Shown here one piece after another: positions 20,768 through 30,883 of a stretch of DNA of 64,000 bases. Position 1 is the stretch's first letter, and the number at the start of each line of letters is the position of its first letter. Where the stretch lies: the NCBI RefSeq assembly GCF_003334355.1, contig NZ_QOWP01000009.1; one strand, written 5' to 3'. A program made the translations under genes and the position numbers. This stretch comes from Escherichia coli (GTDB lineage: Bacteria; Pseudomonadota; Gammaproteobacteria; Enterobacterales; Enterobacteriaceae). The notes beneath the pieces are model-generated. The model did no database searches. It was not told where the DNA came from and saw only the letters and a list, made by a program, of their open reading frames with translations.

Positions 20768-22836
<2,069 letters not shown>

Positions 22837-22841
22837 ATAAA

Positions 22842-22870
22842 CGGGAGGCGAAGGTGCCTCCCGTTTTGCT
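22842..22870 (+). terminator. Terminator between convergent envZ and pck
   Basis: CGGGAGGCGAAGGTGCCTCCCG hairpin followed by TTTTGCTTT; AT-rich on the opposite side as well. Confidence 0.7.
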
Positions 22871-22911
22871 TTCTATAAGATACTGGATAGATATTCTCCA
22901 GCTTCAAATCA

Positions 22912-24534
22912 TTACAGTTTCGGACCAGCCGCTACCAGCGCGGCACCCGCAGGGGTGTCGGTGTATTTATCGAAGTTGTCGATAAACAGTTTCGCCAGGG
23001 TTTCGGCTTTTTCCTGCCACTGTTCCGGAGAAGCGTAGGTGTTACGCGGATCGAGAATCTTCGTGTCTACGCCCGGCAGTTCGGTTGGGATCGCCAGGTT
23101 AAACATCGGCAGAGTGAAGGTTTCTGCATTATCCAGCGAACCGTTGAGGATGGCGTCGATAATGGCGCGGGTATCTTTAATCGAGATACGTTTGCCAGTG
23201 CCGTTCCAGCCAGTGTTAACCAGATAAGCCTGCGCGCCCGCCGCCTGCATACGTTTCACCAGCACTTCTGCGTACTGAGTCGGGTGCAGCGACAGGAATG
23301 CCGCGCCGAAGCAAGCGGAGAAGGTTGGCGTCGGTTCGGTGATGCCACGCTCAGTACCGGCCAGTTTGGCGGTGAAGCCAGAGAGGAAGTGATACTGGGT
23401 TTGATCGGCAGTCAGGCGAGAAACCGGCGGCAACACGCCGAAAGCATCAGCAGTCAGGAAGATAACCTTAGTCGCGTGGCCCGCTTTGGAAACCGGCTTA
23501 ACAATGTTATCGATGTGATAGATCGGATAAGAAACGCGGGTGTTCTCGGTTTTTGAACCATCATCAAAGTCGATAGTGCCATCTTCACGCACGGTGACGT
23601 TTTCCAGCAACGCATCACGACGGATAGCGTTGTAGATTTCAGGTTCCGCTTCTTTCGACAGCTTGATAGTTTTTGCGTAGCAGCCGCCTTCGAAGTTAAA
23701 CACGCCGTCATCGTCCCAGCCGTGTTCGTCATCGCCAATCAGGCGACGTTTCGGGTCGGTGGAAAGGGTGGTTTTACCGGTGCCGGAAAGGCCGAAGAAC
23801 ACCGCAACATCGCCTTTCTCACCAACGTTGGCGGAGCAGTGCATAGAAGCGATACCTTTCAGCGGCAGCAGGTAGTTCATCATCGAGAACATCCCTTTCT
23901 TCATTTCGCCGCCGTACCAGGTGCCGCCAATCAGCTGCATGCGCTCGGTCAGGTTAAACGCCACGAAGTTTTCGGAGTTGAGACCCTGTTCTTTCCACTG
24001 CGGGTTAGTGCACTTCGCGCCGTTCATAACGATAAAGTCTGGTTTGAAACCTGCCAGTTCTTCATCGCTCGGGCGAATAAACATGTTTTTGACAAAATGC
24101 GCCTGCCAGGCCACTTCGGTGATGAAACGGACGGAAAGACGAGTATCCGGGTTCGCACCACAGAAAGCGTCGACAACGAACAGACGTTTGCCGGAAAGCT
24201 GCCTGGTCACCAGGCCTTTCAGATGCTGCCAGGTTTCCGGAGAGAGAGGTTTGTTGTCGTTCTTACCTTTGCCTTTGTCTGCCCACCAGAAAGTATCGCG
24301 AGTGGTATCGTCACGGACGATATACTTATCTTTTGGTGAACGACCGGTGAAGATCCCGGTATCGACGGCAACGGCACCCAGATTAGTTAACACCCCGCGC
24401 TCATAACCTGTCAGGCTCGGATCGAGCTCTTCCTGATACAGCAGGTCGTAGCTTGGGTTGTAAACGATATCATGTACGTCACTGATACCATAAGCCTCGA
24501 GTTCTTGCGGGGTCAAACCATTGTTAACGCGCAT
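22912..24534 (-). CDS. pck: Phosphoenolpyruvate carboxykinase (ATP)
   Basis: 540 aa from the ATG at 24532-24534 ([16 protein letters not shown]...); kinase motif 'GLSGTGKTT'. Confidence 0.96.
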
Positions 24535-24912
24535 TTCACTGCTCCTTAGCCAATATGTATTGCCTGAATAGTAAAGTCTTTTTGGGGGTGTTAACCGCGA
24601 CAAGGCTCATAGATTTACGTATCTGGAGAAATTCATATTTGACAAAAAACTCCGTGATTCCTGTCACGAAACGGTTGCTATTATCGCAGAAATAGCATTT
24701 TAGGTGTGGAAAATGTTCTCAAAAGGTTAAATCTTGGTTTATATGGCGGGAATATTGTGAGTGGAATCGCATTCCTGAATGAAATTGATGCAAATTCAAC
24801 CGGTAAAGTATCGATTCACCACGCTAACTTTTTTTGATTATTTTCTGAAAAAAGCAAAATACTACTGCCCGGATGCGATAATTAACCCACCTTTTGATTC
24901 TGGATAACCAAC

Positions 24913-26637
24913 ATGGATAACGTTGAACTTTCACCCGCAACACGCTGGGGGATGATTGCTACCGGATTACTTCAGGGTCTGGTTTGCTACCTGCTGATCG
25001 CCTGGCTTTCCGGAAAAAATCACAGTTGGATTGTTTATGGCGTGCCTGCGACCGTCGCGTTTTCATCCGTTTTACTCTTCTCCGTGATCTCTTTTAAACA
25101 GAAGCGCCTTTGGGGATGGCTGGCGCTAGTGTTTATTGCCACGCTGGGGATGAGCGGCTGGCTGAAGTGGCAAACTGATGGCATGAACCCCTGGAGAGCT
25201 GAAAAGGCGCTTTGGGATTTTGGTTGCTATCTGCTGTTGATGGCAATGTTGTTGCTACCGTGGATACAACAAAGCCTTCGCATCCGCAATGACAGTAGCC
25301 GCTATCGCTATTTTTACCAGTCAGTATGGCATAACGTACTTATATTACTGGTGATTTTTCTCGCCAATGGCTTGACGTGGCTGGTGCTTTTACTGTGGAG
25401 TGAGTTGTTTAAACTTGTTGGCATCACGTTTTTCAATACGCTCTTTTTTGCAACCGACTGGTTTATTTATCTCACGTTAGGTCTGGTTACCGCGCTGGCG
25501 GTGATCCTCGCGCGAACACAGTCACGTTTAATCGACTCTATTCAAAAGTTGTTCACGTTAATCGCCACGGGGTTGCTGCCGTTAGTATCATTGCTAACCC
25601 TGATGTTTATCATCACCCTGCCGTTTACGGGCCTGAGCGCGATTTCTCGCCACATCTCCGCCGCCGGGTTGCTGTTGACGCTGGCCTTTTTGCAATTGAT
25701 CTTAATGGCTATTGTCCGCGATCCGCAAAAAGCGTCACTTCCCTGGACAGGGCCGTTGCGTTGCCTGATTAAAACCGCTTTGCTGGTTGCTCCGCTGTAT
25801 GTGTTCGTCGCCGCCTGGGCGTTATGGCTGCGGGTCGCTCAGTACGGCTGGACTGTCGACCGCTTGCAGGGCGTGCTGGCGGTGCTGGTGTTACTGGTGT
25901 GGTCGCTGGGGTATTTTGTCAGCATCGTCTGGCGTAAAGGGCAAAATCCCGTTGTTCTTCAGGGCAAAGTGAACCTTGCGGTTTCGTTATTGGTGTTGGT
26001 GATACTGGTGCTTCTTAATTCGCCGGTGCTGGACAGTATGCGCATTAGCGTGAACAGCCATATGGCGCGTTATCAGAGCGGCAAAAACACGTCAGACCAG
26101 GTAACTATCTACATGCTCGAGCAGAGCGGTCGCTATGGACGTGCTGCGCTTGAGTCGCTGAAAAGCGATGCCGGGTTTATGAAAGACCCGAAACGCGCGC
26201 GGGATCTGCTGATGGCGTTAGATGGAGAGCAACATCTTCAGCAACAGGTATCGGAAAAAGTATTAGCCGATAATGTGTTAATTGCCCCTGGTTCTGTTAA
26301 ACCTGATGCGACATTCTGGTCGGCCTTAATCCAGGATCGCTATAACGTGATGACCTGTATTGAAAAAGACGCCTGCGTCCTGGTCGAGCAAGATCTGAAT
26401 AGTGATGGTCAGGCGGAGCGGATCCTGTTTGCTTTTAATGATGACAGAGTCATTGTCTATGGCTTTGACTCAGACAGAAAAGAATGGGACGCGCTTGATA
26501 TGAGTTTACTTCCGAACGAAATAACGAAAGAAAAATTACTCACAGCTGCGAAGGATGGAAAACTGGGGACGAAGCCTAAAGCGTGGCGCGATCTTGTAGT
26601 GGATGGTGAAAGGCTGAATGTGAATCTGAATGAGTGA
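24913..26637 (+). CDS. yhgE: Uncharacterized polytopic inner-membrane protein YhgE
   Basis: 574 aa; about 430 aa of repeated hydrophobic helices, then a hydrophilic C-terminal domain of about 140 aa; no catalytic motif recognised. Confidence 0.8.
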
Positions 26638-26663
26638 CAAAGCGCATCAGGTGTATTAGTCGT

Positions 26664-26690
26664 AAAATCCGGCAGAGCCCTCTCTGCCGG
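26664..26690 (-). terminator. Hairpin between convergent yhgE and hslO
   Basis: CCGGCAGAGCCCTCTCTGCCGG hairpin; minus strand continues ATTTTACG. Confidence 0.5.
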
Positions 26691-26699
26691 ACATACTCA

Positions 26700-27578
26700 T
26701 TAATGAACTTGCGGATCTGCCGGAGACGCGTTGTTGCGGATTTCAGCAATATCCATCGCATTGAACAGATAGTGGTTACCGCAGTAATCACAATGCATGT
26801 CAATTTCGCCATCTTCCGCCAGGATGCTATCAACTTCTTCATCAGGCAGCGTTTTCAGCGCATCGGCGCAACGTTCACGCGAGCAGGTGCATTTGAACTC
26901 CACATCCTGCGGATCGTAAACCGTCACCTCTTCTTCGTGATACAAACGCCACAACACTTCGTTTGCCGGTAAGGTCAGCAGTTCTTCGGTTTTGATGGTT
27001 TCGGTTAGCGTCGCCAGGTGGTCAAAGTCGTCCTGCTGGGCATTTTGCGCAGGCATTACCTGCAACAACATACCGCCTGCAGCCGGTTTGCCGTCTACGT
27101 CGCCGGTGCGAATAAACAGGCGCGTCGGCAGCTGTTCAGAACGCATAAAGTAATCTTCCAGGCAGGCCGCCAGGGTATCACCTTCCAGACCAACTACGCC
27201 CTGATAGCGTTCGCCTTCGCTCGGGGTAATGGTGATCACCACGTAACCATTGCCGACCAGCGTTTTCAGGTCGGCATTTTCTGGAATTTCGCCCTGCACG
27301 CGCGCCACACCGCGCATCTGCTGGTTATTGTTACCGTTAATAACCGCCAGATTCATCGGACCGTCGCCCTGCAGCTGTACGGTGATATCACCATCAAACT
27401 TCAGCGTAGCGGTTAACAGGCTGGTCGCAACCAGCAGTTCTGCCAGCACGTTTTTAACGGGCTGCGGATAATCGTGGTTCTCAAGGATCTGTTGCAGGGT
27501 TTCCGAAACGGTTACCAGTTCGCCGCGCACGGCAAAGTTTTCAAACAGATAGCGATGTAATTGGTCATGTTGCGGCAT
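26700..27578 (-). CDS. hslO: Redox-regulated chaperone Hsp33
   Basis: 292 aa from the ATG at 27576-27578; C-terminal zinc centre CxC...CxxC ('CTCSRERC', 'CDYCGNHY'). Confidence 0.95.
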
Positions 27579-27602
27579 AATCATCTCTCTTGCAGGTGAC
27601 AG

Positions 27603-28004
27603 TTATTCACTGTCGCCGTGTTTAAATCGTAACAGGTCGCGGCGCTCTTTTTTGTCCGGGCGTCGGTCCGGGTGCGGCATGGTTAAGGCATTAAGTTTAC
27701 GTGCCAGCGCCATTTTTTCGCGTTTCTCTACACTTTCCGCAGTCTCTTCATACAGCAAGGCTGCCTCGCTGGCGGGGCGACGCTGTTCAGTAATCGCCTT
27801 TACAATCACCGTGCGTTCGTCATTTCCCTGGCGCAGAGTGAGCGTGGCATTCAGCTCGACGATTTTGCTCGGCTTGCTGCGCTGCCCGTTGTAATGCACC
27901 TTACCGCCTTCAATCATTTCACGGGCCAGCGCGCGGGTTTTATAAAAACGGGCAGCCCATAGCCATTTATCCAGTCGAACCTCAACAGCAGGTTTTTCTT
28001 TCAT
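27603..28004 (-). CDS. hslR: Heat shock protein Hsp15 (S4-domain ribosome-associated protein)
   Basis: 133 aa, basic; immediately upstream of hslO. Confidence 0.93.
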   Translation of the reverse strand: MKEKPAVEVRLDKWLWAARFYKTRALAREMIEGGKVHYNGQRSKPSKIVELNATLTLRQGNDERTVIVKAITEQRRPASEAALLYEETAESVEKREKMALARKLNALTMPHPDRRPDKKERRDLLRFKHGDSE

Positions 28005-28014
28005 GGCGTCTCCT

Positions 28015-28683
28015 TCACATTAGCGAGGGGATCAGGCGGCGGTAGTCATTCAGTGACGGATGGCGTTGATACTGTTTCTCGGCAATCCCGGAATCAGGAT
28101 TAGTCACGCCGAGGCAGTAACGAATACCAAATTGCGCGGCAGCATCGAGAATCGCTTCGCTGTCATCAATAAACAGCGTTCTTTCAGCTTTCAGACCCGT
28201 AGCTTCGGCCACTGCATGCCATAACCGCTGATCCTCTTTCGGATAACCAAATGTGTGGGTGGAAAGTAATAAATCAAGGTGTGCGTCCAGACCCGTATGC
28301 TCAAGTTTTACCGACAGGTTGTGCGGATGCGCATTGGTGAGCAAAATTCGCTGCTTACCGCTGGCTTTCAGTGCCTCAAGAAACGGAATGGTATCTTCAC
28401 GCAGTACGGCACGCGGTCCCATCTCGGTGGTCATCGCACAGATATCCAGACCCAGTTGCTCACTCCAGTAATCAAGACAGTACCAGTTTAGCGTATGCTG
28501 TACGTCGTGATATTGCTGGCGCATATATTCCATCGCTTCCTGTGGCGTAACCCCGTTTTTCGCGCCCCATGTTTCAGGCACCAGCTTTTGCCAGAAATAG
28601 TTATCGAAGGCGAGGTCGAGCAACGTGCCGTCCATATCCAGCAGAACGGTATCTACGTCCTGCCAGGCAATGTTGATATGCAT
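28015..28683 (-). CDS. yrfG: HAD-superfamily nucleotidase YrfG
   Basis: 222 aa from the ATG at 28681-28683; HAD motif I 'DMDGTLLD'. Confidence 0.88.
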   Translation of the reverse strand: MHINIAWQDVDTVLLDMDGTLLDLAFDNYFWQKLVPETWGAKNGVTPQEAMEYMRQQYHDVQHTLNWYCLDYWSEQLGLDICAMTTEMGPRAVLREDTIPFLEALKASGKQRILLTNAHPHNLSVKLEHTGLDAHLDLLLSTHTFGYPKEDQRLWHAVAEATGLKAERTLFIDDSEAILDAAAQFGIRYCLGVTNPDSGIAEKQYQRHPSLNDYRRLIPSLM

Positions 28684-28747
28684 GAGGGAAATCTCCAGAG
28701 TGAAGCAATTTGCGCGACAGGGTAGCATAACCTGCCGCGCAAACGTG

Positions 28748-30883
28748 TTATTCGATAAGGCTTTCTGAAGGGGTGATCAGTTGCGGGTTCAGGCAGCTTT
28801 CATAATAGGCCTGAATCTCCATCATGCGAGTGCGATGACGCTGGTAACGACGCCAGGCCTGTACGCCATTGTAAATGGCGCTACCCAGCATCGTCAGTAG
28901 CAGCAATGTGGTGCTGAGATAGCGCCACAGGCCGGAACGATCCGGGATCGGATGAAGGCCAATATGCTGCGTACCATTGGCGTCAGTGAAGATTTTTGTG
29001 ACGATACCCTCGGCGTTAAACGGCGTATGCATCAGCATTTGTGCCAGTTTCTGGAAAGCGTTCCACTGTTCTTGCGGCGGGTAGTCGTAAAGTGATGCCG
29101 AAGGCCAGGGCTGATCAACAAAATCGCTGCCTTCGTCGCTGACAATCAGGAATCCGCCGGGGGCCGGACTGTTTAGTGATTGTGCCGCTCGCGCCGTTTC
29201 ATGCGTGATAAACGGCGCGGTGGAGGTTGCCACCAGGTTATCCAGCGATTCCGCACTCACCGGGCGTAATAACACATTCACGCCATCGAGCTTCCCGGCG
29301 TTGGCGCGTTTTACCAGCGCGTCCCAGTCTTTACTGTTGCCGAGATTGACCAGCGCATTTTTCAGTCGCACACAGTCATCTTTGGCAGAACATAAATCCG
29401 CTGTCTTCAGTACAATGTCGCCAAAATCATCAAGCAATACCATGCCGGATTTTTGAATTGCTGAACGTAATGAGGCACTGACGCGAGATTCATCTTCCGG
29501 TTTAGGGTGCAGCTGGCGATTAACTGCTTCAGTCAATGCCGTCGCTTTGTTGACCAGTTCAGATTCTGGTAATGGCAATGAGCGGGCGTCGTTCCAGATG
29601 ATCTGCGAGCAGTCAAACGGTAAAAAAGGTGAATTGGTTTTCGCGCTCCAGGTTCCGGAAGTTCGAATATTACACATTCCCGTACCGCTAATACGCAATG
29701 TATCGCCTACCCGCACGCCAGCGTCAGCCAGTTGTTTTACGCTGGTGGCTTCAATGGTCTGCGCGCCTTTCATCCATGAGAGAGTGAATTTCAGCGGCAT
29801 ATCCAGCGGGATCCAGAATAACAGCATAAACAGCACCAGCAGCGAGCCCGCAGCGATAATCGTACTGCGCAGCCAGTGCTGTAACGGAAAGTTTTTTACT
29901 TCATCATGCAGCGAAAGATATCGTCCCTGACGCACTACATGGCGGTCGAGATAGATATCGATATCGGTTTGTTGACCGAGATCCTGAGCAATGTATGGCT
30001 GCCAGTGTGCGGGATAGACCAAGTCGATAATACCGAGTGAAATATTGTTGATCTGTTCCTGATCGTTTTCGCCAAACAATCCCCAACGACGGGGTGTACC
30101 GCGCAGACAATGAATTTCCCGCAGGGAGGATTTTGCCGGGGGCGCGAATAGCCCCCACAGACCTGCGCCCAGCAGCAGTAACGCGCCGCCTGCCAGCCAC
30201 GGAACAAATACATCCGGGGTAATCAGGCAGAAAAAGAACATCAGGAAGGAGGCGACGATCAGCAACGCTTCACGCAGCCCGCGCGGACGACTCAGCGCAT
30301 ATTCTTCATGCGTTTCTTTGCGAATATTGAGTAGCTCGATTTGCTCACTCTCTTCCCCGCGAATCGACGCCTGCGTTGACGGAACAGGTTGCAAGGCATA
30401 GCTGCGAGTTTCCTGCATGTACTCCTGCAGCGTATGACCGTTGAGTGAAATAACCAGCGGCAGCGAATCGGTATGAATCAGTTCAACGGTATTCTCATCG
30501 TTGATGTACTGTTCCCAGAAAGGGGGCAGGTGGACTTCTACCGAATCGAGGTAGTAACGCCATTTATTCGGATCGTCGGTAGAGATGCCGTAACGCGTGA
30601 TAGCGTGTGTCAGCATCATGACGTTGTTGCTTTCGGCATTCAGCGCCAGAGAGATCGGTGCCGCGCTGGCTCCCGTTGGGCCAGGCACCTGTAATACCTG
30701 CGTCAGGCTCTCAAGATAATTTTCAACGGCGCTACGTTCTTCAGGTGTGAGTTTACGCGTTTGCGCATCCGCGAAGGCGTTGGTCCAGGGCAGCTGACGC
30801 CGTCTGGATCGCACTTTTATCAGCCATCCCGCAAGTAGTGAGCAGGCCAGCAAAGCAGCTAAAAAAATCACAATGGTGCTCAT
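28748..30883 (-). CDS. igaA: Inner-membrane regulator of the Rcs phosphorelay, IgaA (YrfF)
   Basis: 711 aa; N-terminal TM segment, large cytoplasmic and periplasmic domains. Confidence 0.92.
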   Translation of the reverse strand: MSTIVIFLAALLACSLLAGWLIKVRSRRRQLPWTNAFADAQTRKLTPEERSAVENYLESLTQVLQVPGPTGASAAPISLALNAESNNVMMLTHAITRYGISTDDPNKWRYYLDSVEVHLPPFWEQYINDENTVELIHTDSLPLVISLNGHTLQEYMQETRSYALQPVPSTQASIRGEESEQIELLNIRKETHEEYALSRPRGLREALLIVASFLMFFFCLITPDVFVPWLAGGALLLLGAGLWGLFAPPAKSSLREIHCLRGTPRRWGLFGENDQEQINNISLGIIDLVYPAHWQPYIAQDLGQQTDIDIYLDRHVVRQGRYLSLHDEVKNFPLQHWLRSTIIAAGSLLVLFMLLFWIPLDMPLKFTLSWMKGAQTIEATSVKQLADAGVRVGDTLRISGTGMCNIRTSGTWSAKTNSPFLPFDCSQIIWNDARSLPLPESELVNKATALTEAVNRQLHPKPEDESRVSASLRSAIQKSGMVLLDDFGDIVLKTADLCSAKDDCVRLKNALVNLGNSKDWDALVKRANAGKLDGVNVLLRPVSAESLDNLVATSTAPFITHETARAAQSLNSPAPGGFLIVSDEGSDFVDQPWPSASLYDYPPQEQWNAFQKLAQMLMHTPFNAEGIVTKIFTDANGTQHIGLHPIPDRSGLWRYLSTTLLLLTMLGSAIYNGVQAWRRYQRHRTRMMEIQAYYESCLNPQLITPSESLIE

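Follow-up and report, generated by a model that had tools for sequence, protein, structure and literature searches.

yhgE, an ordinary y-gene of Escherichia coli divergent from pck, very probably encodes a core DUF4153 inner-membrane protein with a periplasmic C-terminal domain

Our analysis indicates, with high confidence, that yhgE is a real core gene of Escherichia coli, passed on by vertical inheritance, and that its product is a DUF4153-family protein of the inner membrane. Its coding sequence lies at 24913..26637 on the plus strand of the window, the whole 64,000-nucleotide stretch of DNA analysed here, and is identified by the ORF list, the RefSeq annotation of an identical sequence and the Pfam DUF4153 match. 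The open reading frame begins with ATG and specifies 574 amino acids followed by a stop, and at the same coordinates of the identical E. coli sequence RefSeq gives the label “yhgE: DUF4153 domain-containing protein”. A preliminary description of this locus, which spoke of a large conserved membrane protein divergent from pck and of a function not known, is borne out in its coordinates as well as in its wording. The gene had been annotated previously and is publicly catalogued as uncharacterised, and in that sense it is an ordinary y-gene. Around it in the window are found ompR-envZ, pck (minus strand), hslO, hslR, yrfG and igaA, and its GC content is 50.1%, compared with 52.9% for the window. 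The ATGGA at its start is kept in 10 Enterobacteriaceae, and the coding sequence is present at a coverage of at least 80% in every complete E. coli genome (5426/5426). A decaying pseudogene is ruled out by this conservation taken together with the dN/dS values given below.

The protein was modelled with AlphaFold2 (AF2) from an alignment of 130 sequences. The model has a mean pLDDT of 93.4 and a pTM of 0.88, and shows 11 transmembrane (TM) helices between residues 8 and 368, with TM1 to TM6 at residues 8-31, 38-57, 64-87, 93-122, 130-168 and 182-202, and TM7 to TM11 at 204-239, 250-268, 281-311, 315-340 and 346-368. This membrane domain (residues 8-368; 24934..26016, plus strand), recognized from the AF2 model, hydropathy and counts of Lys and Arg in the loops, is followed by a C-terminal domain (residues 375-574; 26035..26634, plus strand), predicted to be periplasmic, in which a helical subdomain precedes a four-stranded beta-sheet module. 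In the model, the helical part covers residues 375-483 and the four strands 488-532, with a helix at 539-547 and a last hairpin thereafter, such that the sheet with its flanking helices spans 488-568. When modelled alone, the C-terminal domain reaches a pLDDT of 94.5, a confidence equal to that of the full model. The loops predicted to face inwards carry a mean of 7.1 Lys and Arg residues, versus 2.5 in those predicted to face outwards, and the inner loops are the richer ones in 125 of the 130 homologues; this positive-inside bias argues for a cytoplasmic N-terminus and a periplasmic C-terminal domain. Thus, we consider it highly probable, on the strength of the model, that YhgE has 11 TM helices, an N-terminus in the cytoplasm and a periplasmic domain of ~200 residues comprising a helical stalk and a small beta-sheet module. 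The preliminary description, which had proposed topology and structure prediction with a fold search as checks, had counted “about ten” helices, where AF2 and hydropathy agree on 11, and had correctly placed a soluble domain at the C-terminus but put its length at ~140 residues rather than ~200. The checks themselves yielded the N-in/C-out topology just described, by AF2, hydropathy and Lys and Arg bias, and a confident model whose search against AFDB50 returned only DUF4153 and DUF7057 proteins.

Two features of the C-terminal domain stand close together at 26356..26418 (plus strand): a C482-x5-C488 pair and a D494-x-N496-x-D498-G499-x-x-E502 loop, which may form a disulfide and a Ca2+ site, respectively. 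Both cysteines occur in 120 of the 130 sequences, neither of them varies in the domain alignment, and the number of cysteines in the C-terminal domain is even and non-zero in 112 of the 130 homologues. This is the pattern expected of periplasmic disulfides and fits a periplasmic location of the domain, and judging by this pattern the family-wide Cys482/Cys488 pair probably forms a disulfide. The loop is conserved to varying degrees across its positions (of 130 sequences, D494 in 109, N or D at 496 in 101, D498 in 111, G499 in 77, and E or D at 502 in 113). It follows the acidic D-x-D/N-x-D-G-x-x-D/E pattern of the FG-GAP or “DxDxDG” calcium loops known from integrin alpha, ITFG2 and a periplasmic Ca-binding protein (3u1w), and as part of the structural description, which we hold with great confidence as a whole, we take the DxNxDGxxE loop to be of this type and to constitute a putative Ca2+ site. 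FG-GAP propellers are, however, seven-bladed, whereas YhgE has a single blade-like unit that scores under the family thresholds, and its Ca2+ site is putative. YhgE itself has no match to the FG-GAP profiles; weak hits in its homologues are in line with a calcium loop, as at E<=0.1 eight of them match FG-GAP_3 and two match FG-GAP, with a best E of 3.7e-3.

YhgE is a direct member of DUF4153 (PF13687), a family without an assigned function. This is its single Pfam match, covering residues 52-415 at an E of 2.6e-31 and positions 3-372 of the 373 in the model, and the same profile is matched by 120 of the 130 homologues. An exhaustive homologue search of 1.84 billion cluster representatives gave 2043 clusters (at 50% identity) with E<=1e-3, most of them with lengths of 570-620 residues and aligned end to end including the C-terminal domain; the membrane and C-terminal domains therefore constitute one conserved architecture. 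When genomes were scanned for the motif LR[VI]xQYGWT, 394 relatives came to light, from Gamma-, Beta- and Alphaproteobacteria. The DUF4153 models in AFDB50 superpose on the AF2 model of YhgE with TM-scores of 0.7-0.88, and the name DUF7057 (PF23167), again a family without an assigned function, is borne by structural neighbours of YhgE and would correspond to its C-terminal domain. The DUF7057 profile does not match E. coli YhgE, and matches four of the 130 homologues at E<=1e-3 and 16 at E<=0.1. DUF4153 was at one time put in the Cache clan and was afterwards judged to be unrelated to it (PMC4822843).

Searches beyond these families gave little. The only NCBIfam hit of YhgE is a chance match (E 0.079; it scores 11.8 bits where the cut-off is 550), PADLOC found no match, and sequence searches of the PDB, run with YhgE alone as well as with profiles A1 and A3, returned nothing under an E of 0.3. 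The claim of the preliminary description that the protein has no recognisable catalytic or transporter signature thus holds, given that DUF4153 is the only Pfam match and the NCBIfam, PADLOC and PDB sequence searches were empty. With high confidence, we regard the fold as one without a solved relative. A caution on nomenclature is due here, as the literature under the name yhgE mostly concerns either the unrelated Gram-positive YhgE/Pip family or a Lactococcus pilin called “YhgE”, while a literature search by locus tag returned nothing on yhgE. The Gram-positive YhgE/Pip “phage infection protein” resembles E. coli YhgE in the gene name and in being a membrane protein, and we reject an identity between the two as a homonym: NCBIfam includes N- and C-terminal pip_yhgE models, and E. 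coli YhgE matches neither these nor the ABC-2 membrane domain.

Conservation within the family is concentrated in three motifs: LPFTGL between TM7 and TM8, R307-x2-QYGWT-x2-R317 between TM9 and TM10, and LDPxRIS-x3-Q383-x2-R386 after TM11. The best conserved of all, in alignments A1 and A2, is L-R307-V-x-Q-Y-G-W-T-x-x-R317 (25828..25863, plus strand), in the TM9-TM10 hairpin predicted to be periplasmic, within which not one of 130 sequences departs from R307. The residues that reach a conservation of at least 90% are mostly aromatic, Gly, Pro and Leu, joined by R307, Q310, R317, N141, N354, Q383 and R386, and no Asp, Glu or His reaches this level in the alignment of the YhgE family. Judged by their positions in the loops, the best-conserved residues are very probably all situated at the mouth of the bundle on its periplasmic side, beneath the C-terminal domain. 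These residues could be a mere packing interface between the bundle and the C-terminal domain.

The genomic surroundings were surveyed at 80 loci taken from a 36-sequence alignment, with the neighbouring genes clustered. The order pck (leftward), yhgE (rightward) and hslO (leftward) is kept in Enterobacteriaceae even where the identity of YhgE falls to 35-57%; outside this family, yhgE homologues are not adjacent to pck. Across the 80 loci, no partner gene was conserved beyond lineage-specific synteny, and context therefore offers no functional lead for YhgE. Several local arrangements were seen in the course of the survey. Xanthomonadales carry tandem DUF4153 paralogues followed by tag with a 4-bp overlap, in one genome DUF1176 genes flank the yhgE homologue on both sides, and in Rahnella a cytochrome b561-like gene stands beside it. 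The tag overlap and the DUF1176 flanks were set aside as functional clues, being restricted to their lineages. On the hslO side in E. coli, the 62-bp convergent spacer contains a GC-rich hairpin with a 9-bp stem and a 4-nt loop (26669..26690, no strand assigned), read from the sequence, which is likely a terminator. Its T-run is found only on the hslO (minus) side, and a consensus scanner did not report the hairpin. An Rfam search over 22000-29000 gave only a spurious match to a eukaryotic snoRNA, far under threshold.

What YhgE might do has to be read from this conserved set of aromatics with Arg, Gln and Asn. Our best explanation of the protein as a whole, in which our confidence falls somewhat short of even, is that YhgE would be a non-enzymatic, periplasm-facing module that binds a ligand or else hands it over or translocates it. 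The ligand would be an anionic, amphipathic molecule of the envelope, such as a phospholipid or another lipid-linked or phosphorylated molecule, and it might be held between the Arg-rich mouth of the bundle and a Ca2+-stabilised C-terminal domain. Taken by itself, the specific proposal that the module faces the periplasm and binds or hands over a ligand of this kind is tentative, and we would put it well on the improbable side. A classical enzyme, an ion-coupled transporter and a signal transducer are tentatively set apart from this explanation because there is no invariant Asp, Glu or His, no ATPase, no partner genes and no cytoplasmic output domain. A bolder extension, which we regard as unlikely, would make DUF4153/YhgE the founder of a new structural class among the inner-membrane machines of proteobacteria. 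An envelope lipid or lipid-linked molecule would then be bound or moved by the Arg/aromatic periplasmic mouth together with an FG-GAP-like domain that is stabilised by Ca2+ and locked by a disulfide, and the periplasmic tip would have been diversified by its use as an entry receptor for phages or toxins. The main rivals to our best explanation are a transporter, an enzyme and a receptor caught in an arms race; positive evidence was found for none of them, and we leave some weight to each.

The first of these would have YhgE as a secondary transporter or exporter that moves a lipid or small solute through the inner membrane and uses the C-terminal domain as a periplasmic gate or adaptor, in keeping with its legacy label of “putative transport protein”. 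The protein is indeed polytopic, some database entries of homologues are titled “Transport” or “Transport protein”, and two conserved polar residues, N141 and N354, lie inside TM helices. We found no profile or fold match to known transporter superfamilies (MFS, APC, RND, ABC-2, DMT and others) and no internal repeat, the hhalign search for repeats within YhgE being negative. We consider a transporter improbable.

We view in much the same doubtful light the proposal that YhgE is a membrane enzyme that faces the periplasm and modifies a substrate of the envelope or one linked to a lipid. Acyltransferase-3 proteins with SGNH domains such as OafA and OafB, as well as ArnT and EptA, combine many TM helices with a non-cytoplasmic C-terminus and a periplasmic domain of 150-300 residues. 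The overall layout of YhgE, with 11 TM helices followed by a periplasmic domain, is shared with these proteins, and the invariant R307 together with R317 and R386, each kept in at least 90% of sequences, could bind (pyro)phosphate at the predicted periplasmic edge of the membrane. YhgE differs from them, however, in having neither sequence nor fold similarity, neither conserved catalytic Asp, Glu, His or Ser nor neighbours for envelope biosynthesis. An enzyme of this kind is at odds with the lack of any invariant or near-invariant Asp, Glu or His. Profiles of GT-C, Wzy_C, acyltransferase_3, sulfatase and PAP2 were not hit, nor did any solved GT-C enzyme, ligase or SEDS protein match in structure; for the GT-C glycosyltransferases, O-antigen ligases or polymerases and SEDS proteins, profile and fold comparisons were both negative. 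Genes for LPS, capsule or ECA were likewise not conserved nearby in the 80 loci.

The third rival concerns the selection acting on the gene and not its native role, and draws on its rate of evolution. yhgE is under purifying selection, and yet it is fast-evolving. When the same genomes are compared, its non-synonymous divergence exceeds that of the neighbouring pck, hslO and envZ ~10-fold: dN against an Escherichia clade is 0.050 for yhgE and 0.003-0.007 for the neighbours, amino acid identity to Citrobacter is 56% versus 93-96%, and dN/dS is ~0.2 versus ~0.02. The most variable segment is the last ~80 residues (493-574), the predicted periplasmic tip, where the local dN/dS peaks at 0.34-0.76. 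A mosaic origin is suggested for one divergent allele, whose first 164 codons have a dS of 0.86-1.0, compared with 0.23-0.27 for the genes on either side. This allele and the rapid divergence of the gene agree with the listing of YhgE among hotspots of phylogenetic incongruence by Touchon et al. (PMC2617782), and the use of yhgE as a lineage-discriminating core gene in Salmonella (PMC3575412) agrees with the pattern of rates. The rates, the mosaic allele, the listed incongruence and the fact that loss of the gene is tolerated would fit an arms race in which phages, bacteriocins or CDI toxins exploit the periplasmic domain as an inner-membrane entry receptor and so drive its diversification. 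However, dN/dS is below 1 in all windows, such that relaxed constraint and diversifying selection are not separable and the former explains the data equally well; the literature searched contained no link of YhgE to phages, colicins or CDI, and PADLOC, as noted, was silent. An arms race as the main pressure therefore appears to us a rather remote prospect.

The tolerance of loss just mentioned has several sources. yhgE is disrupted by IS1 in one natural isolate, a clinical ETEC, and cells with a transposon insertion in the gene grow, though after a long lag (PMC5996734). In a K-12 line evolved under ampicillin, the start codon of yhgE was lost (PMC7394356). This line also carries a nonsense mutation in cyaA, and we do not count it as a yhgE phenotype because its authors attribute the tolerance to cyaA (PMC7394356). 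Altogether, yhgE is almost certainly dispensable.

The divergent arrangement with pck invites a regulatory reading, and the preliminary description had raised the possibility of co-regulation with gluconeogenesis. The spacer it had called AT-rich, 378 bp at 24535..24912 (no strand assigned), does have that length and a GC content of 37.6%, and we analysed it by sequence and by a phylogenetic footprint over 10 genomes. It is bounded on one side by the ATG of pck at 24534 (minus strand; MRVNNG...), which is annotated and conserved; the start of the longest open reading frame, a TTG at 24603 located 23 codons upstream, is an artefact. The pck-proximal half of the spacer is almost invariant among the ten Enterobacteriaceae. 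A CRP site, TGTGAGTGGAATCGCA, reported in the table of an ETEC ChIP-seq study (PMC4287617), has an exact match in the spacer at 24756..24771 (no strand assigned), and both its half-sites are invariant in 10/10 Enterobacteriaceae. Promoter elements were read by eye and from conservation. For pck, an invariant ATTAT..CAG block over the 10 genomes points to an extended -10 (cTGcGATAAT; 24680..24689, minus strand), from which we infer a transcription start near 24673. This start matches a pckA leader that we take to be 139 nt in length, and the whole leader folds no better than shuffled sequence (z -1.06).

Counted from the pck start inferred above, the centre of the CRP site lies at ~-90.5, which resembles a class-I position. 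For yhgE, the sole promoter-like element nearby is a candidate extended -10, TGcGATAAT (24874..24882, plus strand), read from the sequence 31-39 nt before the ATG, and the CRP site would lie at ~-125 from the start that it implies. The CRP site is therefore placed for pck. The candidate sequence ATGCGATAAT is kept in Escherichia, Pseudocitrobacter and Citrobacter (5/10 genomes) but not in Kluyvera or Siccibacter. A consensus promoter scan of the spacer reported nothing and did not flag this element, owing to its poor -35. A Cra-like box, TGAATCGATACT (24807..24818, minus strand), was found by pattern match, and its ATCGATTCACC is kept in 9/10 genomes, although the pattern occurs three times in the window against 2.2 expected, which is not above chance. 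A GalR ChIP site labelled “yhgE/pck” falls inside the pck coding sequence and was discarded.

Expression data point the same way as the placement of the CRP site. Among the iModulons of Sastry et al. 2019, two Crp-linked modules list pck, whereas neither yhgE nor b3402 was found in the accessible part of the supplementary text. In O157:H7 growing on glucose, yhgE falls 3.3-fold at the transition from exponential to stationary phase and groups with ribosomal and growth-related genes (PMC2241611), thus moving opposite to pck with growth phase. In Salmonella, yhgE has been reported in the SprB regulon (PMC6726612). As regards the CRP and Cra regulons, we found for yhgE neither a site in an activating position nor co-variation with pck. 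Hence, that yhgE is co-regulated with pck from a common control region and serves gluconeogenic growth is very improbable, despite the divergent arrangement, the shared conserved CRP site and Cra-like box of the spacer and the adjacency kept across Enterobacteriaceae, as the CRP placement, the absence of yhgE from the iModulons in the accessible material and its stationary-phase drop disfavour this, without refuting it, and homologues outside Enterobacteriaceae lie away from pck. Most likely, yhgE is transcribed from a weak promoter of its own and is not in the pck/gluconeogenic regulon.

yhgE is thus part of the E. coli “y-ome”, a core gene present in all complete genomes yet without a known function. 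Our analysis provides handles for experimental work, namely the 11-TM, N-in/C-out model, the putative disulfide and Ca2+ loop, the conserved residues of the predicted periplasmic face and the prediction that the gene lies outside the pck regulon. Should an envelope lipid prove to be handled by the YhgE family, or should the family turn out to be an entry receptor, envelope biology would gain a new fold.

A conserved element lies in the pck leader. A perfect palindrome, CGTGATTCCTGTCACG (window 24653-24668, minus strand), occupies approximately +5 to +20 relative to the inferred start of transcription, and is nearly invariant across 10 Enterobacteriaceae. In the pck mRNA the palindrome would fold into a 5-bp hairpin whose loop, CAGGAA, would give it a GGA-in-loop shape similar to that of a CsrA site; the palindrome also looks like a pair of CRP half-sites. 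In E. coli the palindrome is followed by a T-run, and a scanner scored the palindrome as terminator-like; the full pck leader folds no better than shuffled sequence (z -1.06).

The longest ORF called for pck (window 22912-24603) extends 23 codons beyond the annotated and conserved ATG (24534), to an upstream TTG. This start at 24603 comes from mechanical ORF listing and is an artefact. A GalR site, ATGATATCGTTTACA, was assigned to “yhgE/pck” by ChIP-chip. It maps to window 24459-24473, approximately 68 bp downstream of the pck ATG, which is within the pck coding sequence and outside the pck–yhgE spacer.

Beyond the Enterobacteriaceae, DUF4153 genes have other neighbors. Loci from Xanthomonas and Stenotrophomonas (L031, L050, L054, L058, L065, L077, L078, L081, and L083) carry tandem DUF4153 paralogues and, downstream, a tag-like gene for DNA-3-methyladenine glycosylase I. 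The 4-bp overlap of this gene with the DUF4153 stop suggests translational coupling of the two; this link is restricted to that lineage. In one genome only (L005 6911-10807), a DUF4153 gene whose product is 32% identical to YhgE is flanked by two DUF1176 genes; all three are encoded on one strand, 13-23 bp apart, in what looks like an operon. A locus titled Chryseobacterium sp. 18061 (L061) shows the full enterobacterial synteny tex-greB-ompR-envZ-pck-yhgE-hslO-hslR-yrfG-igaA-nudE. This assembly probably contains contaminating sequence or bears the wrong label. A similar oddity in AFDB is a 739-aa “DUF7057” protein assigned to the fungus Knufia peltigerae; its TM-score against YhgE is 0.74.

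A genome labelled Shigella flexneri has genes for a RelE-like toxin and an HTH antitoxin inserted between envZ and pck (1211-1883 in L092 and L093); the window lacks both genes. The convergent yhgE–hslO spacer differs in length among strains, from 62 bp in the window (26638-26699) to 134 bp in strain A7 (L090 2339-2472) and approximately 1.6 kb in strain AVS0193 (L088 2438-4070), where it contains an IS200/IS605-type remnant whose insQ/TnpB gene is intact. yhgE itself is split by IS1 near codon 490 in the clinical ETEC strain E. coli O6:H16 2011EL-1370-2 (L089 201-2702) and annotated there as two pseudogene fragments, and IS1414 is present in the region in another strain (hit H1). Finally, the first 164 codons of a divergent Escherichia allele (L091 4001-4492 versus window 24913-25404) show a dS of 0.86-1.02; in the same comparison, the flanking pck and envZ show 0.23-0.27. 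The 5′ part of this yhgE allele was apparently acquired from a more distant lineage.
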